This document shows positions 3,430 through 24,932 of a DNA stretch of 37,372 nucleotides, piece by piece. This DNA is from an uncultured Anaerolineales bacterium (GTDB taxonomy: Bacteria > Chloroflexota > Anaerolineae > Anaerolineales > UBA11858). Both the position numbers and the translations under genes were made by a program. Each line of letters starts with the position of its first letter. Positions within the stretch are counted from its first letter, which is position 1. The DNA is taken from NCBI GenBank assembly GCA_964621895.1, contig CAZUMG010000004.1, positions 4,697 to 42,068 of the forward strand, read 5' to 3'. The notes beneath the pieces are model-generated. The model was not told where the DNA came from. It saw only the letters and a program-made list of their open reading frames with translations, and made no database searches.

Positions 3430-4848
3430 TTAAGACCGCTTTCTTATGAATGCCAATTCAACCAGGGATTCTGTCTCCGGTGTAATCATGGCATCCTGAC
3501 TTAATCTCCCCCCCGGTACCCACAATACCGTATCATTCACAGCAACCAGAGGCCAATCGTTCCTATAAAGCGCAGGAACCTTCTCATTGATCATCATATC
3601 AGCAACTTTCATGGATTTACCGCTCATTCCAAGGGGATAGATCAAATCACCCTCTTGCCGCACTCTAAGAACTGCATCTTTACTGATTGCCTTCTGATCC
3701 ACCCAGACAAGAAAATCCTCTCCGGGAAATTCGGCCAGTTCATATTGATCTAAGGTGTAATCTCGGGGCGTTACCACCAGGTACCAGCCATTCCCTAGAA
3801 AAACCTCTCCCGCTAGCGGTAGTGCGATTTCTTTTTTATTGAGCATCTGGGGAAACTGATCTTTAACTATATCGGTTTCCCAGGTAGATAAGACTATCCA
3901 TTTTGGGGATTGGGACAAATTTACTTTTGCTACCCAGTTAGTTGATTTTTGAGCTGGATTCCGGAAAAAATCCAGGGCAGCATCTACCTGAAGAAAACTA
4001 AGCTCGCGGAATTCAGGCCTGAGGCATGCCAAGGATTTCCGGATCAGGCGGCGTTGGACCGCGGGTGGATAATTTAATAACACATCCCTGGCAAGTTGAA
4101 GATAACTCGCACCCTGGCTGTGAAGACAGGATTTCCAGGCAATTTCACTGAAATATTCGAGCGCTTGATCCTCTGCAGAAATAATTTGAGCCGTTTGCAG
4201 CAACCGCCGATTAAATCCTGGGGTTAATTTCTCAAGTTGGGGGATCAAAGTAAGTCGGATTTTATTCCTCTGGAAAACCAGCTCCTTATTTGTTGGATCC
4301 TCCAGGGAAGGTATTTGCTGTTCGGTTAGATATTCCAGGATTTGCTCCCTTTCAAGATCTAAAAAGGGTCTGACCAGGGGGATCCTATCACTCCAGGGAT
4401 TGGGCAGACTTACCACTTGCATCCCGGATAATCCCTTCATACCGGAACCTCGAAGCAGATTCATCAAGATTGTTTCCACCTGGTCATCTGCATGGTGAGC
4501 GACGGCAACTGCACCTGCCATCTCAGTCTCAGCCACTTTAAACAAAAATTGATATCGTAAAATTCTGGCAGCTTCTTCCAGGGATAAACCTTGCTCGTTT
4601 GAGAACTGGCGAACATCACCAGCTCCCTCGCGAAAGGGCAATCCTGCAGAGAGGCAGAATTCTCGAACAAAAGCAGCTTCCTGGTCTGCATCATCACGCA
4701 GCTTATGATTAAAATGGGCTGCTATCGGAGAAAGATTATTAGCCATCATGGCATGTAAGAGCGTCATGCTGTCCGGACCACCAGACAGACCAACCACAAT
4801 GGGAGGATTAATAATGAGCAGGGTTTGCTCTAGAGCGTTGAATACCAT
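3430..4848 (-). CDS. tilS: tRNA(Ile)-lysidine synthase TilS
   Basis: PP-loop SGGPDS close to the N-terminus (MVFNALEQTLLIINPPIVVGLSGGPDSM), plus a TilS substrate-binding/C-terminal region. The start was moved from 5163 to the ATG at 4848, because the longer ORF would overlap the divergent response-regulator gene. Confidence 0.85.
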   Translation of the reverse strand: MVFNALEQTLLIINPPIVVGLSGGPDSMTLLHAMMANNLSPIAAHFNHKLRDDADQEAAFVREFCLSAGLPFREGAGDVRQFSNEQGLSLEEAARILRYQFLFKVAETEMAGAVAVAHHADDQVETILMNLLRGSGMKGLSGMQVVSLPNPWSDRIPLVRPFLDLEREQILEYLTEQQIPSLEDPTNKELVFQRNKIRLTLIPQLEKLTPGFNRRLLQTAQIISAEDQALEYFSEIAWKSCLHSQGASYLQLARDVLLNYPPAVQRRLIRKSLACLRPEFRELSFLQVDAALDFFRNPAQKSTNWVAKVNLSQSPKWIVLSTWETDIVKDQFPQMLNKKEIALPLAGEVFLGNGWYLVVTPRDYTLDQYELAEFPGEDFLVWVDQKAISKDAVLRVRQEGDLIYPLGMSGKSMKVADMMINEKVPALYRNDWPLVAVNDTVLWVPGGRLSQDAMITPETESLVELAFIRKRS

Positions 4849-4865
4849 TTTCAAATTATAATCTA

Positions 4866-4874
4866 TGGTATATT
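4866..4874 (+). promoter_or_regulatory. Extended -10 (TGgTATATT) for the REC-ParA-like operon
   Basis: TGg at 4866-4868 followed by TATATT at 4869-4874. GAGG Shine-Dalgarno at 4906-4909, 6 nt before the ATG at 4916. Confidence 0.3.
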
Positions 4875-4915
4875 TTATTAATAGGCTTTTTTTGCAGGTA
4901 AATCCGAGGTTTAAG

Positions 4916-6058
4916 ATGGCCCAAACGATATTAATTATTGATGATGACCTAGATACCTTAAAGCTGGTCGGTATCATGCTGGAAAGAAAAGGATTTAGAA
5001 TCCTAGCCAGTACAACTGGGAAAAAAGGTCTGCAATTGGCCAATAAAGAACATCCGGATTTAATACTGCTTGATATCATGATTCCGGATATCAACGGATA
5101 TGATATTGCTCGATCGCTACGATCATCACCTGAAACAGAGACCATACCGATTATTATGTTCACCGCCCGAAGCCAGGTTGATGATAAGGTCGAAGGTTTG
5201 GAAGCTGGGGCAGATGCCTATATAACCAAACCAGCCAGACCTAGGGAATTATTCGCACAAGTCAATTCTATACTAAAACGAGCTCCCCAAAGATCCGCTG
5301 GCAACCAATCTGCTGCCGCAGAAAAGGGTACCTTAATCGGTATTATTGCCTCAAAAGGTGGTATTGGTATATCTACACTGGCCACCAATCTGGCCATGGA
5401 GATCCATAAACAATCGGCAAAATCAACCATCCTGTCAGATTTCAGGCCGGGTCAGGGAACCATCAGCATGGACCTGGATGTTCAAAATACCAACGGGATG
5501 ATTAAATTGCTTGAAGAAGAACCAGGATCGGATTTATCAACGCTGCTTCCGGAAACCTTACTTGATCATAAATCCGGAATTAAAGTTCTCTTATCTTCCT
5601 ATCAACCGACAGACTCAAAATACAGTTTCCATGTTGAACAATTTTATGATATTGCCCGATTATTAACAACCCTGGCTGACTATACAATTTTAGACCTGGG
5701 TCCTTCATTAACCCCGCTGACCACAAAAATACTTCCAGAGTGTGACAAAATCCTGATCTGTTTTGAACCTTCTCCCGGGAATATCACCCAAACCAGGATG
5801 TTGATTCAGGATCTAATCAATAAAGGAATCGGTGAAGGTCGTTTTATCATCGTTTTAATCAACCGGCAGCGGACCAGCGTGCAGCTCAGCTATGAACAAA
5901 CTGAAAATCAATTGGAACGTAAGGTGGACCAACTCTTTACACCAGTTCCGGAATTGGCATACCAGGCAGCGGCAACAAATATTCCCATAATCCAGCGCGC
6001 TGAAGACAGCATGACGGCTGAGCAGTTCCGCGATCTAGCCAGATTAATCCTGGACTAA
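4916..6058 (+). CDS. Response-regulator receiver domain fused to a ParA/MinD/CpaE(TadZ)-like ATPase domain with an atypical P-loop
   Basis: The REC domain looks intact: DDD near the N-terminus, acceptor Asp in LILLDIMIPD, then MFTA and ITKP. The C-terminal half is SKGGIGISTLATNLA ... ILDLGP. Confidence 0.8.
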   Translation: MAQTILIIDDDLDTLKLVGIMLERKGFRILASTTGKKGLQLANKEHPDLILLDIMIPDINGYDIARSLRSSPETETIPIIMFTARSQVDDKVEGLEAGADAYITKPARPRELFAQVNSILKRAPQRSAGNQSAAAEKGTLIGIIASKGGIGISTLATNLAMEIHKQSAKSTILSDFRPGQGTISMDLDVQNTNGMIKLLEEEPGSDLSTLLPETLLDHKSGIKVLLSSYQPTDSKYSFHVEQFYDIARLLTTLADYTILDLGPSLTPLTTKILPECDKILICFEPSPGNITQTRMLIQDLINKGIGEGRFIIVLINRQRTSVQLSYEQTENQLERKVDQLFTPVPELAYQAAATNIPIIQRAEDSMTAEQFRDLARLILD

Positions 6059-8041: not shown

Positions 8042-8584
8042 ATGACAATCAACATAAAAAAATACCGGATTCATTTTGTTTTATTAATCGTAATCATTTT
8101 CCTGGGAATTATGGCATTTACTCAGGGAGGTTGGGATCAAGTCCTCGCTGGCATCAAAGATGGATTATCCATACTGCTGCAAGAACTCCCGCTGCTCGCA
8201 GCAGCCTTTCTAACTGCAGGATTTCTCCAAGCATTAGTCAAAAAGGAATTTATCACCCGCTGGTTGGGAAGAGAAGCAGGTTTGAAGGGTATTCTGCTGG
8301 CCTGCCTGGGGGGTGGCCTTATCCCCGGTGGTCCGTACGCATATTATCCGATTGCCGGAGCCTTGTTAAAATCAGGTGCTGGACTGGGGGTTCTAATTGC
8401 CTTTGTGACCGCTAAAAACCTCTGGTCCGTATCCAGAATCCCCCTGGAATTTGCGATACTGGGCACAACGATAACCATTCGGCGATATCTGATCACCTTC
8501 CTCATTCCACCTCTGCTGGGATTGCTTGCTGAGTGGTTCTTGGGAGGATCCATAACAAAAATAGAGGAAAATGCCCAACAATGA
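8042..8584 (+). CDS. Half-size integral membrane permease (COG0701/DUF318-like), subunit 1
   Basis: Polytopic hydrophobic protein with motif GGLIPGGPYAYYPIAGALLKSGAGLGVLIAFVTA. Confidence 0.55.
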   Translation: MTINIKKYRIHFVLLIVIIFLGIMAFTQGGWDQVLAGIKDGLSILLQELPLLAAAFLTAGFLQALVKKEFITRWLGREAGLKGILLACLGGGLIPGGPYAYYPIAGALLKSGAGLGVLIAFVTAKNLWSVSRIPLEFAILGTTITIRRYLITFLIPPLLGLLAEWFLGGSITKIEENAQQ

Positions 8585-9066
8585 GCTCAGCAACCATCAT
8601 TCTCTGGTGTATCACTGCAGTATTGCTTCTATTTAGCTGGAAAGCAGGGCCGGAAACAGTTAACCGGGGATTCCACTTGGCATGGGCAACCACGAAACAG
8701 AACACCTTGTTGATTTTCTTGGCCTTCTTGATCGTTGGCTTTGTAAATATTCTTTCACCCCAGGAATTAGTAAAATCCTGGATTGGACCCGCTTCAGGGT
8801 GGCAGGGCATTATATTGGCAGAGTTTCTGGGAATGCTTCTTCCGGGAGGTCCGTACGTTGTTTTTCCATTAATCGCGATTCTTTTCCAAGCAGGAGCCGG
8901 CCTGGCTCCGATAATCACTTTGATTACCAGCTGGTCTACCCAATCACTGCTGACGATTGGGTTTGAACTGCCATTTATGGGATGGCGTTTTACATTAATT
9001 CGGTGGGGGATGGGGTTATTAATACCCCTTGCAGCTGGATTTACTGCTGTTATTTTATGGGGTTAA
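8581..9066 (+). CDS. Half-size integral membrane permease, subunit 2 (paralogue of the upstream gene)
   Basis: The ATG at 8581 overlaps the upstream stop as ATGA. Paralogous motif GMLLPGGPYVVFPLIAILFQAGAGLAPIITLITS. Confidence 0.55.
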   Translation: MSSATIILWCITAVLLLFSWKAGPETVNRGFHLAWATTKQNTLLIFLAFLIVGFVNILSPQELVKSWIGPASGWQGIILAEFLGMLLPGGPYVVFPLIAILFQAGAGLAPIITLITSWSTQSLLTIGFELPFMGWRFTLIRWGMGLLIPLAAGFTAVILWG

Positions 9067-17026: not shown

Positions 17027-17045
17027 CCATAGACATTATCTATGG
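17027..17045. promoter_or_regulatory. Perfect 7-5-7 palindrome next to a consensus -35 box; candidate operator for the arsR-tusA-hdr operon
   Basis: CCATAGA-catta-TCTATGG at 17027-17045. TTGACA at 17053-17058. arsR ATG at 17165. Confidence 0.35.
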
Positions 17046-17164: not shown

Positions 17165-17449
17165 ATGAACCCAATCGAAATCTCTGAAGCGCAGGAACAA
17201 GCAGAATTCTGTGGGATATTAGGAAACTCCCAAAGAATACGAATCGTATGGGCACTGGGGAAGCAGGAATTGACCGTTGGTGAAATCGCTAAGGAAATTG
17301 AAGCTTCCATGCAGAATACCTCCCAGCATCTGCGCCTGATGAAAAATAAGGGAGTTCTGCAGTCCAGAAGGGATGGAAGAGAGATTTACTACCGGATTGC
17401 CGATACAAAATACAGCAGAGCTTGTTCAGTGATCTCAAAAAACCGTTAA
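17165..17449 (+). CDS. ArsR/SmtB-family winged-helix transcriptional regulator
   Basis: ILGNSQRIRIVWAL...LTVGEIAKEIEASMQNTSQHLRLMKNKGVL..RRDGREIYYRI. Confidence 0.8.
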   Translation: MNPIEISEAQEQAEFCGILGNSQRIRIVWALGKQELTVGEIAKEIEASMQNTSQHLRLMKNKGVLQSRRDGREIYYRIADTKYSRACSVISKNR

Positions 17450-17482
17450 GCCAATTATATTGCATTACTTAAGGAGAAAGAT

Positions 17483-17737
17483 ATGTCCCCGGAAGAATTA
17501 GAACAACTAGAAAGCGCTGAAACTGTTGACGCCCGGGCAATGGCCTGCCCCGGTCCCCTGCTGGAAGCCAAGAAAAGCATTGGCAAGGTCAAGGTGGATG
17601 AAGTCCTGGAATTATGGGCTGGTGATCCCAATACAAAAATGGATATGCCCCGCTGGTGTGCCAAAGTCGGTCATGAGTACCTGGGAGATTTGCAGGCTGA
17701 CGGATATGATCGATTGTTTATCCGCCGGAAAAAATAA
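17483..17737 (+). CDS. tusA: TusA/SirA-family sulfur carrier protein
   Basis: DARAMACPGPLLEAKKSI (Cys-Pro-x-Pro active-site motif), ~80 aa. AAGGAG Shine-Dalgarno upstream. Confidence 0.85.
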   Translation: MSPEELEQLESAETVDARAMACPGPLLEAKKSIGKVKVDEVLELWAGDPNTKMDMPRWCAKVGHEYLGDLQADGYDRLFIRRKK

Positions 17738-17752
17738 GCCTATCAGAGTTTC

Positions 17753-17785
17753 GTATCCCGTAAATCAGTCTTTTTTGCGGGATAC
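17753..17785 (+). promoter_or_regulatory. 8-bp-stem hairpin between tusA and the MvhD-like gene (attenuator, processing site or operator)
   Basis: GTATCCCG (17753-17760), 17-nt U-rich loop, CGGGATAC (17778-17785), followed by tgctttgcttg. Confidence 0.35.
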
Positions 17786-17811
17786 TGCTTTGCTTGAATA
17801 AGGATTACTTT

Positions 17812-18264
17812 ATGGAAAATTGTGCAGAGTACGAGAAACCAAAAATACTTATTCTGGCCACCATTTCAGGGGGATATGCTGGGGCAGACTCTGTCGGGCA
17901 ATTGCACACAGATTACCCAAACAATACCTATATTCTCCCGGTAATTTGTCCGAGTATGTTCAGAGAAGGTTTTTATATCGGAGCATTTAAACGGGGTATA
18001 GATGCCATCATTGTCATGTACAGCGGAACAGACAGCCCGTACAAAGGGGGGCCCGAACGCGCTGCCCAGTTGATTAACAAAACCTATCCAGCTATGAAAG
18101 AAATTGGTCTGGATACCCGCCGATTAAAATTGACTGCTATTTGTACAGTATGCACCAAACCATTTCTGAAAGAAGTCAGCCAGATGAATATTCTTCTGGA
18201 TGAAATTGGATTTGTAAAAGATGAAATGGCAGCCTTCTCAGGTACTGAGCCAGCGGCAGCCTGA
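17812..18264 (+). CDS. MvhD/FlpD-like domain protein lacking most of the canonical cluster-binding cysteines
   Basis: AAGGA Shine-Dalgarno 7 nt before the ATG at 17812. YAGADSVG...YP.N...LPVICPS...AFKRGIDAIIVMYSGTDSPYKGGPERA follows the MvhD/FlpD layout. Confidence 0.6.
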   Translation: MENCAEYEKPKILILATISGGYAGADSVGQLHTDYPNNTYILPVICPSMFREGFYIGAFKRGIDAIIVMYSGTDSPYKGGPERAAQLINKTYPAMKEIGLDTRRLKLTAICTVCTKPFLKEVSQMNILLDEIGFVKDEMAAFSGTEPAAA

Positions 18265-18327
18265 CCCGCCCTTAAATGTAATAGGACGGATGCATATTAA
18301 GAATATTAATACAGAGGAGAAACACCC

Positions 18328-19650
18328 TTGAGAAAAATCCAAGTCGATGCTCTCGTAGTCGGTGGTGGAATTTCCGGGATGCAAACTGCCCTTGATCTCG
18401 CGGATCAGGGTTATCAGGTTGCACTGGTGGAAAAGGAAGCCAGCATTGGCGGCAAAATGATCGCCCTCAGTAAAGTATTTCCAACCCTGGACTGCTGCAG
18501 CTGCATAACAACTCCAAAAATGTCCGCTGTCGCCCACCACGCCAATATTCAACTGCTTACCTACCATGAGATCCAGGCAGTCACCAAAACTGAGACGGGG
18601 TTTATCGCTGAAGTTCTTAAAAAACCCCGCTACGTCGATGAAGATAGCTGTACTGGGTGCAGAAAGTGCGAATATGCCTGCCCAATTAGCCTTCCCAATG
18701 CATTTGACCTGGATTATGGAGCAACCAAAGCAGTTCGCGTTCCATTTTCTACTGCAGTTCCCCAGTATGCGGTACTGGATATAGAAAATTGCATTCTGTG
18801 CGGTAAATGTGAAAAGGTTTGTCCAGTTGATTGCATTGATTTCACCCAGATACCAGAAACTTTTGAGATCGAAGCCGATGCTATCATCCTGGCAACCGGA
18901 TTTGAAACTACATCTCGCTTCGCCAAGAAGGAATACGGGGCAGATCAAAATCATAACGTGATTAATGCCATGTTCATGGAGCGTTTACTCGCGCCTACAG
19001 GACCATACGGTCGAGTGATTAGACCCGGTGATGGGAAAGAACCTGATTCGATAGCCTATGTCCAGTGCGCGGGATCCAGGGACACTACCCTGGGTGTTGA
19101 ATACTGCTCGCGGGTTTGCTGCATGTATGCTATTAAACAAGCCATGCTTTTAGCCGGTTCACTTCCCATGGCAGATATAACTATTTATTACATGGATATA
19201 CGCAGTTTTGGCAAAGGGTATGAACAATTTTTTCAGAATGCCAAAACCATGGGAATCCAATTTGTAAATGGGAAAGTCGCTTCAATAAAGCAAGATGAAA
19301 ATCAAAACCCCGTCCTCAGGGTGGAACTTATTGACGAAGGATCTCAGGTTGTAGAAAGAACCCACGATCTGGTTGTCCTCTCGGTAGGATTACTCCCTGG
19401 TTATGATCCGGAAGAGATCTTTAAACTCTCCCCGGCAGATGATGGTTTCATCAATACACCCAAAACAAACTCCTATCCCTGTTTAACCGATCAAACAGGT
19501 ATTTTTGTCGCCGGAACATCTGCGGGACCCATGGACATCGTAGATAGCATTATTATGTCAGGGTCAGCAGCTTCTGAAGCGGCAGCCTATATTGAAAATA
19601 AGAAAAAATCCCCTGCCCCACCAGAAAAAAGAGAGTCTGTCTATGCCTAA
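18328..19650 (+). CDS. HdrA-family flavo-FeS protein, QmoA-like (440 aa)
   Basis: GAGGAG Shine-Dalgarno then TTG start. VVGGGISGMQTA FAD fold. Two CxxCxxCxxxCP motifs (CTGCRKCEYACP, CILCGKCEKVCP). HdrA signature CAGSRD...YCSRVCC. Confidence 0.8.
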   Translation: MRKIQVDALVVGGGISGMQTALDLADQGYQVALVEKEASIGGKMIALSKVFPTLDCCSCITTPKMSAVAHHANIQLLTYHEIQAVTKTETGFIAEVLKKPRYVDEDSCTGCRKCEYACPISLPNAFDLDYGATKAVRVPFSTAVPQYAVLDIENCILCGKCEKVCPVDCIDFTQIPETFEIEADAIILATGFETTSRFAKKEYGADQNHNVINAMFMERLLAPTGPYGRVIRPGDGKEPDSIAYVQCAGSRDTTLGVEYCSRVCCMYAIKQAMLLAGSLPMADITIYYMDIRSFGKGYEQFFQNAKTMGIQFVNGKVASIKQDENQNPVLRVELIDEGSQVVERTHDLVVLSVGLLPGYDPEEIFKLSPADDGFINTPKTNSYPCLTDQTGIFVAGTSAGPMDIVDSIIMSGSAASEAAAYIENKKKSPAPPEKRESVYA

Positions 19651-21664
19651 TAACAAGACGAACGAGATCAGAATTGGCGTATACACCTGCCATTGTGGCG
19701 GAAATATCAGTGATGTGATCAATTGTGAGAAGGTCGCAAAAGAATTAGAGAAATTTCCCAATGTTGTCGTATCCCGCACCGACGAATCGATGTGTTCTGA
19801 TATCGGACAATCCTTGATTGAGGACGATATCAGGGAAAAAGGGATCAACCGGGTAGTGATCGGAGCATGTGCTCCCTCTTTACATGAACAAACTTTCCGG
19901 GGTACGCTTTCCAGAGCTGGTCTTAATCCTTATCTGTATTATCACGTTGGTTTGAGGGAACAAGACAGTTGGGTTCACAAGAATAACTGTGAGGGAGCAA
20001 CTGATAAAGCGATCCGCTTAATGGCTACAGGGATTGGAAAAGCCAGATTGCTTGATCCCCTCTCACCAATCCAATTAAAAGCTGAGCGGCATGCCCTGGT
20101 TATTGGGGGAGGAATAGCCGGTATAAAATCGGCCTATGACATCGCCCGCCGGGGACTAAAAGTTACCCTGATTGAAAAATCACCTTTCCTGGGTGGCAGG
20201 GTTGCTCAGCTGGACACACTTTTCCCGACCGATGAAAAAGCCCGCGATACACTCCAGGATTTGATCCAGAAAATAACCGCCCATCCCAATATCACCATTA
20301 TCACCCAGGCTGAGGTTACCCGGGTCTCAGGATATGTTGGGGATTTTCATATTCAAATTCAGCAAAATTCACGCGGAGTGGATGACTTAAATGCGGAAGA
20401 TATTATGGCCGCTTCCCAGCAATCCGTTCCGAATGAGTTTGACTATGGATTAACAACTCGCAAGGTGATTTACCGTCCCTATTCCAATTGTTATCCCAAT
20501 ACGCCTGCGGTCGACTGGGAAAATTATGATGGGAAACCCCTGATGGTGAATGGGGAAGAAATCATTTTGAAGAATCAACCCTCCACTAAAGACTTTCATG
20601 TCGGCGCTATTGTTGTGGCTACCGGTTTTGACCCCTATGAACCGCGGCAGGGCGAATTTGGTTATGGGGAAATTCCGGAAGTTATCACCCTACCTACTTT
20701 AATCCGCCATCTTGACTCCCATAAAAAAGGTGCCGAATTGACCTGGAATGGGCACTCGGTTCGGGATATAGCCCTGCTGCATTGTGTTGGCAGTAGAGAA
20801 ATTGAAGGGATTGATGCTCCTCACGAAGATGGAATGGTCAACAATTACTGTTCAAGGGTTTGCTGCACAGCAAATCTGCATATGGCTAATACCCTCAAAG
20901 AAAACTACCCTGAGATAAATATTTATGATTTATACGAGGATATCAGGACCTACGGTCGCGGACATGAGATCTTTTATCAGGACGCTCTCAGTCAAATGGT
21001 CCGTTTCCTGCGCTTCCACGGTGATGATCGTCCAAATGTGAAAAAAGCCGATCCAGCCGATACTCATCCCGTTCTGGTTGATGTGCGCGATCACCTCTCC
21101 AATGGAAAAGAATTGGAAATCCCCGTTGACTTGGTTGTCTTGGCTGTTGGTATGATTCCCCGAGATATTGACCAGTTAGTAAAAATGCTCAAGATCTCCA
21201 GGGGTAACGACCGATTTTTAGCTGAAGTCCATCCAAAACTACGACCCGTCGAAACAGCGGTCCCCGGTATCGTTCTTGCTGGCACCGCCCAGGGTCCGAT
21301 GAACGTCCAAGAAAGCTGTGCAGCAGCATCAGCCGCCGCGGCGAAAGTTTCCGCACTCCTCAGCCAGGGGAAAGTTGAACTGGAGCCCTTTGTCGCTCAG
21401 GTGGATCTGGATAAATGCCAGGGTACTGGCAGTTGTGTAGAAGTATGTGCTTATGAAGACGCGATCGCCCTGCAGGAGATGACTATCAACAATCAGGTTG
21501 TAAAACGGGCAGTGGTCAGCCCAGCAAATTGCACCGGTTGCGGAAATTGTGTTAGCGCCTGCCCAAGTGAGGCTATCGAGGTCCAGGGATGGACCATACC
21601 CCAATATGAAGCCATGCTGGATGCAATTGCCCTTGATCTTGATGAATTAATGGAGGTTGCATAA
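19643..21664 (+). CDS. HdrA-family flavo-FeS protein, QmoB-like (673 aa) without a fused MvhD domain
   Basis: The ATG at 19643 gives an 8-nt overlap with the upstream gene. N-domain YTCHCGGNISDVINC...GACAP. VIGGGIAGIKSA. CVGSRE...YCSRVCC. C-terminal ferredoxin CQGTGSCVEVC (atypical) plus CTGCGNCVSACP. Confidence 0.8.
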   Translation: MPNNKTNEIRIGVYTCHCGGNISDVINCEKVAKELEKFPNVVVSRTDESMCSDIGQSLIEDDIREKGINRVVIGACAPSLHEQTFRGTLSRAGLNPYLYYHVGLREQDSWVHKNNCEGATDKAIRLMATGIGKARLLDPLSPIQLKAERHALVIGGGIAGIKSAYDIARRGLKVTLIEKSPFLGGRVAQLDTLFPTDEKARDTLQDLIQKITAHPNITIITQAEVTRVSGYVGDFHIQIQQNSRGVDDLNAEDIMAASQQSVPNEFDYGLTTRKVIYRPYSNCYPNTPAVDWENYDGKPLMVNGEEIILKNQPSTKDFHVGAIVVATGFDPYEPRQGEFGYGEIPEVITLPTLIRHLDSHKKGAELTWNGHSVRDIALLHCVGSREIEGIDAPHEDGMVNNYCSRVCCTANLHMANTLKENYPEINIYDLYEDIRTYGRGHEIFYQDALSQMVRFLRFHGDDRPNVKKADPADTHPVLVDVRDHLSNGKELEIPVDLVVLAVGMIPRDIDQLVKMLKISRGNDRFLAEVHPKLRPVETAVPGIVLAGTAQGPMNVQESCAAASAAAAKVSALLSQGKVELEPFVAQVDLDKCQGTGSCVEVCAYEDAIALQEMTINNQVVKRAVVSPANCTGCGNCVSACPSEAIEVQGWTIPQYEAMLDAIALDLDELMEVA

Positions 21665-21957
21665 TGACTGAAAAAGATGCTGCCAAACAACGAACCCAAC
21701 TATTAAAAGAGTTGCGAGAAAAACATCAAAGCACAGTTGACCAAACCCAGGCTCTTCTTAAGGAAAATGGGAAAGTTGAAAGGGATATTCTAAAATTGAT
21801 CACCGAGGAATCCAAAACTGTCCCGGTAATAGCCTCTACGCTAGATCTACCGACTCATCGAATTTTGTGGTTCTTAACAGCCTTAAAGAAATATGGCCAG
21901 ATCAGTGAAGACGGCATGGACGGGGAATATGTCCTTTATAAGCGGAATGAGGAGTAA
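21664..21957 (+). CDS. 97-aa protein with a charged helical N-terminus and a winged-helix-like C-terminus; function unknown
   Basis: The start overlaps the upstream stop (TAATG). The next gene begins 4 nt after its stop, and a GAGGAG for that gene lies within its 3' end. Confidence 0.6.
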   Translation: MTEKDAAKQRTQLLKELREKHQSTVDQTQALLKENGKVERDILKLITEESKTVPVIASTLDLPTHRILWFLTALKKYGQISEDGMDGEYVLYKRNEE

Positions 21958-21961
21958 CACT

Positions 21962-23134
21962 ATGGCCACAAGAGTGGATCCCAGTTTAATGATTGAGCTT
22001 AAGGAATTTGGCGCTGTTGATCTCGAAAAGTGCTTTAACTGCGGCAACTGTACTGCTATTTGTCCTCTCACGGATAGCGATCATCCCTTCCCAAGAGACA
22101 TGATCCGAATGGTTCAACTTGGCTTAAGGGATCAAATAACGGAAAGCCTTGATCCCTGGCTGTGCTATTATTGCGGGGACTGTTCCCTTACTTGTCCTAA
22201 GAAAGCAGAACCTGCGGAAACCATGATGTCTTTACGCCGCTGGCTGACAGCCCAGTATGATTGGACGGGATTGGCTGGTAAATTCTATACATCCAAATTC
22301 TGGGAATTCGGATCTATGATACTGGCAGCGATTTTTGTGATTATCTTGGCGATCATCCTGCATGGACCGATCATTACAGACCAAGTCGAGCTGAACACTT
22401 TTGCCCCAATTGAACTAATGCATACAGCAGACTGGATCATGGCAGTTGGCTTAGTATTCTTTATTGGAACAAACATTTTAAGAATGCACAATAGCATAAT
22501 CCTCCGGGGAATTTCCGTTAAAGTACCCCTGGGGGTGTATCTGTCTGAAGCCTGGTACTTTATTCTCCACCTTTTCACCCAGAAACGCTGGTCAGAATGC
22601 GCAAAAGATGAAAAGACCCAGCAGGAAAAACTCCATAAACAAACACCCTGGATTACCCACCTGCTTCTGGCCAGCGGTTATGGTTTGATGCTGGTGTTAA
22701 TCATGCTCTTCCTGCCCTGGTTCCAAACTGATTCGATCTACCCGATAACCAACCCCCAGCGATGGTTGGGATACTATGCCACGGCAGTCCTGCTATACGG
22801 TGCGGGATCGGTACTCTACGGCCGGATTAAACAAGATCGACCGCTGCATCAATTTTCCCATGCAAGTGACTGGATCTTTCCGGTCCTGCTGCTAATTGTA
22901 GCTTTAACCGGAATCTTACAGCACACATTCCGATACCTTGGCTTGCCCCTGGCAACATACTATACCTATGTAATTCACCTTGCAGCTGCCTTCCCGATGT
23001 TGGTGTTGGAAGTACCCTTTGGAAAATGGGCTCACCTGTATTATCGGCCCCTGGCGGTATATTTCCAGGCTGTTAAGGTCAAAGCAGAGGAACTAGCAAA
23101 AATCCAAGGTAAAGCCGCGGTACCTGTTGCATAA
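21962..23134 (+). CDS. HdrC-like 2x[4Fe-4S] domain fused to an HdrE/DsrM/NarI-like polytopic membrane domain (QmoC-like)
   Basis: CFNCGNCTAICP and CYYCGDCSLTCP, followed by about six hydrophobic helices carrying several His (HGPI, HTADW, LHLF, THLLL, QHTF, IHLAA). Confidence 0.75.
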   Translation: MATRVDPSLMIELKEFGAVDLEKCFNCGNCTAICPLTDSDHPFPRDMIRMVQLGLRDQITESLDPWLCYYCGDCSLTCPKKAEPAETMMSLRRWLTAQYDWTGLAGKFYTSKFWEFGSMILAAIFVIILAIILHGPIITDQVELNTFAPIELMHTADWIMAVGLVFFIGTNILRMHNSIILRGISVKVPLGVYLSEAWYFILHLFTQKRWSECAKDEKTQQEKLHKQTPWITHLLLASGYGLMLVLIMLFLPWFQTDSIYPITNPQRWLGYYATAVLLYGAGSVLYGRIKQDRPLHQFSHASDWIFPVLLLIVALTGILQHTFRYLGLPLATYYTYVIHLAAAFPMLVLEVPFGKWAHLYYRPLAVYFQAVKVKAEELAKIQGKAAVPVA

Positions 23135-23287
23135 TTTTCGGATCCAATCAACCAGGTACTATTTTGAAGATAATAAGATGCCTGATAGGAGAGTAATCTT
23201 TACACTAATAAGTCTGCCAAATCAGGTATGAAAGGTAATGATAAGAAGTGCATTTCTAAATCAACATTAGAAAGGAGAGAAACATAT

Positions 23288-23461
23288 GTGAGTGAAGGGA
23301 CCTCAACCCAAACGCAGATTAGCCTGGGAAAGTTTTACCCAGTTCCAGGAGAGATTATTCAGCTCAGTTTCACCAGGGTATCTCCAAGGGCAGTTATAAG
23401 TACCGGATCAGCGTTCCATGAGTTGGGTGTACTGAACAATAGGAAATCAAGAAAAACTTAA
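23288..23461 (+). CDS. Possible 57-aa small protein (GTG start); very uncertain
   Basis: Strong AAAGGAGAG Shine-Dalgarno at 23271-23279. The optimally spaced ATG (23286) is followed at once by TGA. The overlapping GTG at 23288 opens a 57-codon frame. Confidence 0.2.
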   Translation: MSEGTSTQTQISLGKFYPVPGEIIQLSFTRVSPRAVISTGSAFHELGVLNNRKSRKT

Positions 23462-23473
23462 ATAAGCTATACC

Positions 23474-23493
23474 CGGGATAATATCATATCCCG
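23474..23493. promoter_or_regulatory. 20-bp palindrome overlapping a -10-like hexamer upstream of the DsrE-family gene; candidate operator
   Basis: CGGGATA-atatca-TATCCCG. TAATAT at 23479-23484. dsrE-like ATG at 23527. Confidence 0.4.
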
Positions 23494-23526
23494 ATTAATT
23501 CAGATTAAAAAAAAGGAGATTTAACA

Positions 23527-23886
23527 ATGAGTAAAATGGCGATAGCTTGTAACGGCGATACCGCAGCCAACATTATGCCAACCCTGATTTTTTCATCTTC
23601 AGGCTTAGCAGTTGACAATGAAGTTGTGATTTTCTTCTGTCCCGCAGGCGCGCGCTGGGTGTTGAAGGGTGAGCTGGAAAAATTGGGGTCCCCTAAGGGA
23701 CTACCTGATCCTATCAAATTGTTTAATGACATTCTGGATCTTGGTGGGGAAATGATTTTATGTGAACTGGCCCTGGAAAACAAAGGCATTGATCCAAAAG
23801 ACCTGCGTGATTCCAGAATCAAAATCGCCAAGGCTCCCCCATTCTTAATGCAAGTAGAAGATGCCAATTTAACCTTTACTTTCTAA
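23527..23886 (+). CDS. DsrE/DsrF-family small sulfur-relay protein
   Basis: About 119 aa, AGGAG Shine-Dalgarno. Layout MAIACNGD...VVIFFCPAGARWV...GGEMILCELAL, with a Cys in the position expected for DsrE-type carriers. Confidence 0.7.
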   Translation: MSKMAIACNGDTAANIMPTLIFSSSGLAVDNEVVIFFCPAGARWVLKGELEKLGSPKGLPDPIKLFNDILDLGGEMILCELALENKGIDPKDLRDSRIKIAKAPPFLMQVEDANLTFTF

Positions 23887-23925: not shown

Positions 23926-23956
23926 GAAAAAAGAGGCCAGGATTGGCCTCTTTTTC
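23926..23956. terminator. Bidirectional intrinsic terminator between the convergent DsrE-family and lysR genes
   Basis: AAAAAA, then AGAGGCCA-ggat-TGGCCTCT, then TTTT. Confidence 0.6.
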
Positions 23957-23978: not shown

Positions 23979-24932
23979 TTATAAATCCTTAATGGTATAT
24001 TTGGAGTCTCCCCGCCCGGCTATTTCTATCAGATCCCGATTAGTGGGATCATGTACAAAGCCCCAGAAGGCATCCTGGGAACGATTGGAAACGTTTAATC
24101 TCTTACGAACCATGTAGATTGTTCTTACCAGGTTAAATCCCTCAATTGGGACAGCTACAACATTTCCTCGATCCAGAGCACAGTCGGCTGCCAGCTTGGA
24201 TACAAATGAGATCCCGTACCCGGCAGCCACCGTTCTGATAATAGCCTCTGCATTGCCTATTTTCATAAAGATATTTAAATCTTCTAAACTGATGTCATAT
24301 TTGGCAAATTCAGAAAGGACAATCTTCCTGGTTCCAGAGGTTTCCTCGCGCATGATGATAGATTCCTCCAATAAATCTTCCGGAAGAATCTTAGAACGAG
24401 AGATGAAGGGATGGCTTTTCGGAACGATCACAGAAATTGAATCCTGAAAAAAACGCTGGAGTTCCAGCTCTTTATCCGGGATTTCAGAACTGATTACACC
24501 CAGGTTTGCTATTCCTTCCAACAGATTGGGGACAACCGTTGCAGGGGCACAGCGCAGTAATGTCATCCGGATCTTCGGGTGCCGCATTGAAAACCGTGCG
24601 GCCAATTGAGGAAGGACATATTTCCCGGCGGTTGTGCTGCAGGCAATACACAGATCCCCGGCGATTCCTTGTTTCAGCGAGTCCATCATCTCCTGCATTT
24701 CAATCGAATCTCTCACAACTCGCTTAGCCCAGGGGACTAATAGACGGCCTGCCTCAGTGAGTTTTATCGATGCGCCCTGCCGCTCGAAAAGCAAAACACC
24801 CAGGTCCTGCTCTAAATTTTTAATATGGTGGCTGACAGTTGGTTGGGTGACATGAAGAATCCGGGCAGCTTCAGAAAAGTTGAGATTCTCAGCTGCATGT
24901 AAAAAAGTCTCAATCTGTAACAGATCGACCAT
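23979..24932 (-). CDS. LysR-family transcriptional regulator
   Basis: N-terminal HTH LNFSEAARILHVTQPTVSHHIKNLEQDLGVLLFER, followed by a substrate-binding domain. Confidence 0.85.
   Translation of the reverse strand: MVDLLQIETFLHAAENLNFSEAARILHVTQPTVSHHIKNLEQDLGVLLFERQGASIKLTEAGRLLVPWAKRVVRDSIEMQEMMDSLKQGIAGDLCIACSTTAGKYVLPQLAARFSMRHPKIRMTLLRCAPATVVPNLLEGIANLGVISSEIPDKELELQRFFQDSISVIVPKSHPFISRSKILPEDLLEESIIMREETSGTRKIVLSEFAKYDISLEDLNIFMKIGNAEAIIRTVAAGYGISFVSKLAADCALDRGNVVAVPIEGFNLVRTIYMVRKRLNVSNRSQDAFWGFVHDPTNRDLIEIAGRGDSKYTIKDL

Follow-up and report, generated by a model that had tools for sequence, protein, structure and literature searches.

What does a complex of the Qmo type do where sulfur carriers, and not the enzymes of sulfate reduction, are encoded beside it? 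Qmo-like genes in metagenome-assembled genomes (MAGs) of Chloroflexota and other groups are counted as markers of dissimilatory sulfate reduction (e.g., PMC11005417), and the question is raised by a locus of an uncultured Anaerolineales bacterium. This locus lies on contig CAZUMG010000004.1, in a window of 37 kb (the whole stretch of DNA that was analysed, 37,372 nt), and comprises eight co-directional genes on the + strand (17165-23886), which lead from an ArsR-type regulator to a DsrE-like protein and encode Qmo-like subunits together with the sulfur carrier proteins TusA and DsrE. Because the cluster invariably travels with TusA and DsrE, and not with sulfate-reduction enzymes, its likely task is electron transfer between quinones and sulfur bound to proteins. 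The more specific reading developed here, to which we give an even chance, is that of a quinone-linked Qmo/Hdr-type oxidoreductase for sulfane sulfur bound to TusA and DsrE, possibly a flavin-bifurcating one.

A gene cluster conserved across phyla

According to the open reading frames (ORFs) of the window, the cluster begins with the genes for ArsR (17165-17449, 94 amino acids, aa) and TusA (17483-17737, 84 aa, with the motif ACPGP), followed by an FlpD/MvhD-like protein, whose ORF spans 17794-18264 (156 aa) and whose database copy starts at Met7 (17812-18264, 150 aa). Next come two paralogues of HdrA, one QmoA-like (18328-19650, 440 aa) and one QmoB-like (19643-21664, 673 aa), then a small protein, p97 (21664-21957, 97 aa), a QmoC-like fusion protein (21962-23134, 390 aa), and finally the DsrE-like protein (23527-23886, 119 aa). 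QmoA and QmoB overlap by 8 nt and QmoB and p97 by 1 nt, p97 and QmoC are 4 nt apart, and a spacer of 392 nt separates QmoC from DsrE. These ORF coordinates reproduce the gene set and spacings given in an earlier, sequence-only reading of the window, and profile searches with Pfam and NCBIfam back its family assignments for all genes except the family-less p97. The same reading had seen no aprBA, sat, dsrAB, lbpA or CCG-domain HdrB/HdrD partner on either flank, in agreement with Pfam scans, including the 29 flanking ORFs, which detected no Apr, Sat, Dsr, CCG-domain or lipoate-binding protein in the 37-kb window.

Related loci were compared in a sample of 80, with one genome per species and flanks of 10 kb, onto which the window proteins were placed by tblastn; gene order was counted in the 61 loci whose sequence extends 5.2 kb or more upstream of QmoC, and 57 loci are of the TusA type. 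A search for the same gene order in other genomes had been proposed, and indeed TusA, FlpD, QmoA and QmoB occur together upstream of QmoC in 55 of the 61 species-level loci, with a small protein between QmoB and QmoC in 49/61 and ArsR upstream in 43/61. TusA is there whenever QmoA and QmoB are (55/55 loci), and a DsrE-family ORF, nearly always directly after QmoC or directly before TusA, was found in 57/57 TusA-type loci; these DsrE-family neighbours fall into several subtypes. The suspected link of the Qmo-like module to TusA and DsrE is thus systematic, and the gene cluster is a conserved system, not a chance neighbourhood. In locus L085, where QmoC is 28% identical to that of the window, the order still reads TusA-FlpD-QmoA-QmoB-(83 aa)-QmoC-DsrE.

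The 57 genomes with TusA-type loci represent about ten phyla. As labelled, the hosts include Anaerolineales, Promineifilaceae, Ardenticatenaceae and Thermoflexus on the side of the Chloroflexota, as well as Planctomycetota/Phycisphaerae, Verrucomicrobia, Acidobacteriota/Bryobacterales, Bacteroidales, Elusimicrobiales, Actinomycetota, Gemmatimonadales, Chthonomonas and 'delta proteobacterium' MAGs. Relatives of the QmoC-like protein number more than 5000 at E 1e-10 or better, all clades counted, and the nearest stem from Anaerolineales MAGs.

Several of the recurrent neighbours are concerned with sulfur trafficking. In 14-15 loci from Anaerolineales, QmoC and DsrE are separated by a DsrE-TusA-YeeE module; a verrucomicrobial locus (L041) has genes for a rhodanese and for a Pyr_redox_2 flavoprotein of 415 aa next to the cluster, and DrsE_2 lies upstream of TusA in the Bacteroidales loci. 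Clustering of the neighbours within 10 kb of the 80 related loci revealed no recurrent Apr- or Dsr-like neighbour, and no CCG-domain protein was found within 10 kb of any TusA-type locus, as the search for the CCG signature matched two loci of other types only. Neither the window nor the recurrent neighbours include HdrB1/B2, HdrC1/C2 or LbpA.

Subunits of the Qmo-like core

The QmoA-like protein combines a flavin adenine dinucleotide (FAD) domain with an inserted ferredoxin domain for two [4Fe-4S] clusters, a 'DCxxC' motif and a four-Cys [4Fe-4S] motif. Its match to the HdrA2 model covers model positions 137-561 (E 5e-140, below the equivalog cut-off), and all of its cluster cysteines are kept in 54-55 of 55 orthologues. 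The QmoB-like protein corresponds to a full-length HdrA without the MvhD domain, composed of an N-terminal cluster domain, a FAD domain with a four-Cys motif and a C-terminal ferredoxin domain; it aligns to methanogen HdrA (5odc_A; E 8e-139, residues 8-650) and matches the HdrA model at E 8e-172, below the equivalog cut-off. The cysteines of the inserted ferredoxin domain and the 'DCxxC' motif are lost in QmoB, and those of the N-terminal, thioredoxin-reductase-domain and C-terminal clusters are conserved; taking QmoA and QmoB together, the cluster cysteines are kept in 53-57 of 55-57 orthologues. These alignments show that QmoA and QmoB are complementary HdrA paralogues, which jointly hold one copy of each HdrA domain with all the matching cluster cysteines.

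One irregularity was observed in the C-terminal ferredoxin domain of QmoB (21418-21450, residues 592-602 of the 673-aa form), where the first cluster motif reads C-x5-C-x3-C, the usual second Cys being missing. The pattern recurs in 56/57 orthologues and could mean a [3Fe-4S] cluster or a ligand other than Cys.

In the QmoC-like protein, an HdrC-type domain for two [4Fe-4S] clusters is fused to a NarI-like membrane domain. The N-terminal domain aligns with HdrC, the whole protein matches the NCBIfam model qmoC (NF038018) over positions 6-359 of 360 (E 1.5e-57), and a truncated close homologue carries PF02665 of the NarI family. The eight cluster cysteines are conserved at 99-100%, and three histidines (His233, His339 and His358, conserved at 95-100%) are the sole universal ones among 78 representatives of the family. 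As conserved histidines had been named as a check on heme binding by the membrane domain, it is relevant that the same three are kept in the canonical QmoC proteins P0354 and P0359. The full-length match to the qmoC model, the conserved Cys and His residues and the close homologue with a NarI-family domain all argue for a link to quinones.

The profile searches therefore recovered the QmoABC blueprint that had been recognized before, i.e., two HdrA-derived flavoproteins plus an HdrC/NarI-type fusion. However, QmoC of the window scores 195.7 bits against NF038018, for which the equivalog cut-off is 300 bits; eight other non-canonical representatives score 149-232 bits, whereas two canonical QmoC proteins reach 382 and 458 bits. 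The subunits of the window are 26-30% identical to those of a canonical qmoABC locus (L088) and 33-40% identical to those of a hydrogenase-linked locus (L087), and QmoB is nearer to true HdrA. Judged by its subunit sequences, the complex is not canonical Qmo, as had been surmised.

Sulfur carriers and an MvhD-fold protein with an invariant CxxC

TusA matches PF01206 over its full length (E 5.5e-18), and its active-site Cys22, within the CPGP motif, is kept in 56/56 orthologues. The DsrE-like protein matches PF13686 and PF02635, and its profile search also retrieves the DsrE-like structures 3mc3, 2qs7 and 3pnx with the Cys aligned; the active-site Cys79 is kept in 45/45 orthologues.

The FlpD-like protein belongs to PF02662 (E 4.3e-15), and the top Foldseek matches of its AlphaFold model are MvhD chains (5odh_D, 5odc_D, 8rvu_F and 7bkb_F; TM-score 0.60-0.73). 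From the canonical [2Fe-2S] set (CCxxC, MC, GCHxGDCH), the protein of the window has retained the 'ICPS' Cys alone, as the canonical CCNWC reads ATISGG and GCHxGDCH reads YSGTDSPY. A different pair, Cys117-x2-Cys120, is present in 59/59 TusA-linked FlpD proteins and in no non-TusA relative examined, being found neither in MvhD linked to a hydrogenase nor in the corresponding domain of canonical QmoB. At two further positions, Cys and Ser alternate, such that 24/59 proteins have four cysteines, 21, including the one of the window, have Cys-Ser-Cys-Cys, and 4 have the CxxC only. The MvhD-like protein is thus separate and devoid of the canonical N-terminal cluster cysteines, as the sequence-only reading had it, but the attribute 'Cys-depleted' is too simple, given the invariant CxxC. 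The idea that FlpD is plainly cluster-less was softened as well, since 24/59 orthologues have four cysteines.

Relatives of the cluster carry other modules on the same core. In a sister arrangement (L087:419-8238), QmoC and two HdrA paralogues are encoded with a cysteine-complete MvhD, MvhG, MvhA and HycI; together with the TusA-type loci, this hydrogenase implies that the core accepts different modules at the MvhD position. Three further loci (L042, L060, L073) and a Methanoperedens locus (L032) were seen to resemble the hydrogenase-linked arrangement. In about ten TusA-type loci (L045, 5310-8015; L043, L056, L062, L068, L070, L072, L075, L079, L080, L085), in hosts labelled Acidobacteriota, Gemmatimonadales, Actinomycetota or 'delta proteobacterium', QmoA is extended to about 900 aa by an in-frame insert of about 470 aa inside the inserted ferredoxin domain. 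The insert consists of Fer4_20 and Pyr_redox_2 and is GltD/NfnB-like, which suggests NAD(P)H as a partner. By analogy with HdrA, the insert clade would have its NAD(P)H-type module at what corresponds to the low-potential exit of HdrA.

Proposed function

The products of the cluster probably form a membrane-anchored complex of the flavin/iron-sulfur/heme type, with TusA and DsrE, and not adenylylsulfate (APS) reductase, as its dedicated partners. The proposal that this complex acts on carrier-bound sulfane sulfur draws on the gene order kept across phyla and at 28% identity of QmoC, on the sulfur-trafficking neighbours and on the invariant cysteines, but equally on the restriction of the CxxC to TusA-linked members, the modular relatives, the absence of a CCG or recurrent catalytic neighbour and the conserved palindrome described below. 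In the mechanism envisaged, the MvhD-fold protein would dock on QmoB as MvhD docks on HdrA, and its CxxC would be the site of a two-electron step at Cys22 of TusA (TusA-SSH + 2e- -> TusA-SH + H2S, or the reverse), to which some members might add a rewired iron-sulfur site formed with the two extra Cys positions. DsrE would supply or accept the sulfur of TusA, QmoC would link the flavin to menaquinone, and the inserted ferredoxin domain of QmoA might lead to a low-potential partner, presumably ferredoxin in the window and NAD(P)H in the clade with the GltD/NfnB insert. Such a layout with three partners would permit flavin-based electron confurcation or bifurcation. Expression may be controlled by the ArsR-type repressor, acting via the palindrome ATAGA-N5-TCTAT and a thiol switch of Cys16 and Cys87.

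As for the direction of electron flow, we lean slightly toward reduction, i.e., the removal of sulfane or thiosulfate-derived sulfur or its use as an electron sink, since many relatives carry the DsrE-TusA-YeeE uptake module and no gene for a multi-electron oxidation of sulfur was found. A number of points weigh against the proposed function as a whole. None of the subunits has a recognised sulfur-reducing or sulfur-oxidising active site, and the lineage of the window has lost the uptake module. The reducing power of menaquinol does not suffice for a persulfide unless a second, low-potential donor takes part. The model of FlpD is of moderate confidence (predicted local distance difference test, pLDDT, 68); we infer from strand topology, not from distances, that the CxxC comes after strand 4, on the edge of the former cluster site, and a catalytic role of this motif is conjecture. 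Moreover, in the 24/59 FlpD proteins with four cysteines, these might do no more than hold a rewired iron-sulfur cluster that relays electrons.

The same parts can be arranged in other ways. In an oxidative, bifurcating version, FlpD and TusA would be the electron input: sulfide would be converted to TusA persulfide, and the flavin would split the electrons between menaquinone and ferredoxin or NAD(P)+. The structural comparison with Mvh-Hdr speaks for an oxidative, bifurcating enzyme, as the MvhD position is the electron-input side in the solved Mvh-Hdr and the FlpD of the window models onto MvhD; in addition, the sister clade has a real hydrogenase at this position together with QmoC, another clade has its NAD(P)H-type module at the low-potential exit, and rhodanese and the Pyr_redox_2 flavoprotein stand beside the cluster in L041. 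The potentials would also suit, since sulfide is oxidised to TusA persulfide at roughly -270 mV and the potential of the sulfide/sulfur couple falls about halfway between those of menaquinone and ferredoxin. However, sulfide needs no importer, and yet many loci carry the YeeE-type uptake module; no downstream enzyme is at hand to dispose of the persulfide formed, bifurcation by either flavin is hypothetical, and many hosts live as heterotrophs and would not obviously need reduced ferredoxin from sulfide. We regard this version as doubtful. Its furthest elaboration would be a new type of flavin-based bifurcating enzyme, in which the persulfide/thiol couple of TusA, at the CxxC of a cluster-less MvhD-fold adaptor, replaces hydrogenase as the mid-potential partner, with menaquinone (via QmoC) on the high-potential and ferredoxin or NAD(P)H on the low-potential side; this, too, we consider unlikely.

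A substrate other than a persulfide, either a mixed protein disulfide of TusA and DsrE or a TusA thiosulfonate made from imported thiosulfate, is suggested by the 14-15 loci mentioned, in which the cluster includes YeeE and an additional TusA and DsrE, and proteins of the DsrE3 and TusA types are described as carriers of thiosulfate (Liu et al., 2014, as cited in PMC10504309). The CxxC, moreover, is the classic motif of dithiol-disulfide exchange. Since the uptake module is optional, with most loci outside the Chloroflexota lacking YeeE and that of the window being decayed, and since the reduction of thiosulfate with quinol is strongly endergonic, such an adduct appears distinctly unlikely. 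Alternatively, the complex might have no sulfur substrate at all and work, e.g., as a ferredoxin- or NAD(P)H:menaquinone oxidoreductase, with FlpD as a plain relay with a rewired cluster and TusA and DsrE serving only the building or repair of cofactors, or being co-regulated for unrelated reasons. The missing sulfur-converting active site and the four cluster-capable cysteines in 24/59 FlpD-like proteins would be in line with this, and the GltD/NfnB-type insert hints at a flow from NAD(P)H to quinone in one clade. Respiratory operons do not as a rule begin with a dedicated carrier for cofactor assembly, however, and TusA comes first in 55/55 cases; four FlpD-like proteins retain the CxxC only, a DsrE-family gene accompanies all 57 TusA-type loci, the YeeE uptake modules and the rhodanese neighbour indicate a sulfur substrate, and the Cys pair of ArsR is largely kept. 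A complex without a sulfur substrate is thus quite improbable. Least of all do we expect an ordinary QmoABC that serves an AprBA encoded elsewhere, with TusA and DsrE as mere neighbours. The two HdrA paralogues, the HdrC/NarI fusion and the full-length match to the qmoC model would fit, and surveys count QmoABC of Chloroflexota MAGs among the sulfate-reduction genes (PMC11005417). Against this stand the score of QmoC below a cut-off that canonical proteins exceed, the low subunit identity, the lack of aprBA in the window and of a recurrent Apr-like neighbour among the 80 related loci, and a linkage to TusA, FlpD and DsrE that is invariant over about ten phyla; canonical type I qmo genes are reported to belong to a sat-aprAB-qmoABC operon, and type II genes occur with or without Apr and Dsr (PMC10504309). 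We consider an ordinary Qmo highly improbable.

Regulation and genomic surroundings

The regulator at the head of the cluster is matched by the NCBIfam model HTH_metalloreg (78 bits), and scores 47.9 bits against BigR, for which the cut-off is 155. Its Cys16 is kept in 36/44 and its Cys87 in 34/44 orthologues, but in an alignment to SqrR both lie off the SqrR/BigR sensing positions in helices alpha-2 and alpha-5, and the one in alpha-2 is occupied by Trp. A sensor of the SqrR/BigR type was rejected on account of the position of the cysteines and the low BigR score. Upstream of ArsR, an operator-like inverted repeat, ATAGA-N5-TCTAT (17029-17043), overlaps a promoter-like pair of hexamers. With up to one mismatch, 21/55 loci have this palindrome in the 300 nt that precede ArsR or TusA, compared to about 0.25 expected in 55 loci from a background of 0.0046 per 300 nt, i.e., it is enriched about 80-fold. 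As it lies 130-220 nt before the start codon, the leader would be unusually long.

The small protein p97 has 92 homologues at 54-80% identity, contains no cysteine and matches no Pfam family. Its AlphaFold model (pLDDT 94) consists of a long helix (3-48) and a winged helix (50-94), and Foldseek returned only generic ArsR/MarR-type winged helices, none of them at E 1e-3 or better. A role as a DsrD-like activator was considered and not supported, as there is no Pfam match and DsrD is not in the best 50 Foldseek matches. The protein may be a subunit of the complex or a second regulator.

The spacer between QmoC and DsrE (23135-23526) contains the relic of a second, TsuB/YeeD-like TusA gene (TusA2; 23288-23461, + strand). 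A first tblastn search, for which DsrE, TusA and YeeE of L004 were the queries, gave no match in the spacer; blastn and an alignment of the DNA later revealed the relic, which aligns to the ribosome-binding site and first codons of TusA2 in L021, L023, L028 and L029. Both active-site Cys codons are altered, and BLASTP against TusA2 gives E 0.003. The decayed TusA2 implies that the lineage of the window has lost the DsrE-TusA-YeeE uptake module. An independent, partial decay of the same module was observed in L028, where TusA2 contains a stop codon and YeeE is missing. A riboswitch or small RNA in the spacer was discarded, as Rfam found nothing in the window.

Downstream of DsrE, a hairpin whose stem of 12 bp is perfectly paired and bordered by runs of A and T (23928-23955) has the form of a bidirectional intrinsic terminator. 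It separates the cluster from a convergent gene for a LysR-family regulator on the - strand (23979-24932; PF00126 and PF03466). LysR adjoins DsrE on the opposite strand in 32/57 loci and is a conserved neighbour in Chloroflexota.

According to the Pfam scan, the 29 flanking ORFs have housekeeping functions only, and include a branched-chain amino-acid ATP-binding cassette (ABC) transporter, a short-chain dehydrogenase/reductase (SDR), TilS, Sir2, NrdR and the dcw cluster from murD to ftsZ. The dcw cluster of the window occupies the side on which close relatives have other genes: about 7-8 kb downstream of QmoC, an NrfD-like membrane protein, an NrfC-like 4Fe-4S protein and a multiheme cytochrome c are encoded in L004, L013, L021, L029, L044 and L084. 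A fusion of thioredoxin-like and VKOR domains (PF07884), a quinone-linked thiol-disulfide enzyme that recurs in some Chloroflexota, lies about 2 kb downstream of QmoC in L010, L017, L039, L053, L055, L063 and L082.

A few further observations concern gene calling. In L004 (contig ERZ25039514) and L001, the genes of the cluster are broken by apparent frameshifts, QmoA and QmoB being split into several called genes; as the near-identical L002 and L003 are intact, these are probably assembly errors and not pseudogenes. In the window, one and the same N-terminal part of the ArsP_1 'predicted permease' model is matched twice, by two adjacent, overlapping ORFs (8042-8584 and 8533-9066), which represent either a two-piece permease or a duplication. 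A TilS-like ORF (3430-5163, - strand) and a response-regulator/AAA_31 ORF (4865-6058, + strand) overlap by about 300 nt on opposite strands, so that at least one start codon probably lies further in than the ORF listing places it.

Implications

By this analysis, a large and widespread Qmo-like clade constitutes a different machine, which is tied to TusA and DsrE carriers. Since Qmo-like genes are taken as markers of sulfate reduction and this clade differs, such annotations could mislead inventories of the sulfur cycle. If the proposed function is true, the complex would be the first of the Hdr/Qmo type with a protein-bound persulfide as substrate and without a catalytic subunit of the HdrB, AprBA or DsrAB type, and the invariant CxxC on the MvhD fold provides a defined candidate site for coupling sulfur chemistry to the flavin and the quinone pool. 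The related loci also show one core, composed of QmoC and two HdrA paralogues, combined with interchangeable input modules, be it a hydrogenase, sulfur carriers or an NAD(P)H domain. Should bifurcation apply as well, the turnover of sulfide or sulfane sulfur would be coupled to both the quinone pool and a low-potential reductant in many phyla that are not sulfur specialists.

Comparison with known systems

With canonical QmoABC, the complex of the window shares two HdrA-derived flavoproteins, an HdrC/NarI-type QmoC fusion with the same eight Cys and three His, and an MvhD-fold element. In canonical QmoB (L086, L088), however, the MvhD domain is fused and cysteine-bearing, with four Cys kept, whereas QmoB of the window ends after the ferredoxin domain. 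The window also differs in that QmoA retains the inserted domain for two [4Fe-4S] clusters, in having the extra winged-helix protein, and in the putative partners, TusA and DsrE instead of AprBA. 'Type II' Qmo proteins have been described as closer to HdrA and as occurring with or without Apr and Dsr, their function being left open; the carriers named are the sulfate reducers Vulcanisaeta and Ammonifex, and no linkage to TusA, FlpD or DsrE is reported there (Neukirchen et al., 2023; PMC10504309). Judged by this description, the proteins of the window would fit type II, and the searchable papers contained no account of the cluster beyond this remark on type II Qmo.

The HdrABC-MvhAGD complex of methanogens (5ODC) supplies the logic of an input module that is docked via MvhD. 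QmoB resembles HdrA over its whole length, the N-terminal part of QmoC resembles HdrC, and the FlpD model superposes on MvhD, but the window has neither an HdrB/CCG subunit nor a hydrogenase, two complementary paralogues take the place of the single HdrA, the HdrC part is joined to a membrane domain of the cytochrome-b type, and the MvhD-like protein lacks the N-terminal cluster ligands. In the sister arrangement L087, by contrast, the input is a [NiFe] hydrogenase with a cysteine-complete MvhD, and TusA, DsrE and the CxxC are all absent. QmoA with the GltD/NfnB-like insert resembles HdrL, an HdrA with a second NAD(P)H/FAD module (name from PMC12142623).

The sHdr-LbpA system is similar in that an HdrA-type flavoprotein is encoded alongside TusA and DsrE-family sulfur transferases (PMC11094781). 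In contrast to sHdr-LbpA, the window has no HdrB1/B2, no HdrC1/C2 pair and no LbpA or lipoate genes, but two HdrA paralogues and QmoC; sHdr is soluble and not quinone-linked, unlike what is predicted for the QmoC-bearing complex. An ArsR-type regulator, sHdrR, is found near sHdr systems, and the cluster of the window likewise has an ArsR-type gene. The persulfide-responsive regulons of CstR, SqrR and BigR comprise sulfurtransferases and a persulfide reductase or oxidase. The window shares with them a thiol-bearing repressor beside carriers of the TusA, DsrE or rhodanese type and a flavoenzyme that could dispose of sulfane sulfur, but the cysteines of its regulator are at other positions, and its flavoenzyme would be a multi-subunit membrane complex, not a soluble NADH enzyme. 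The parts and the blueprint of the cluster are therefore already known; what is new is the set of partners, the separate MvhD-fold protein with its CxxC, and the winged-helix protein.

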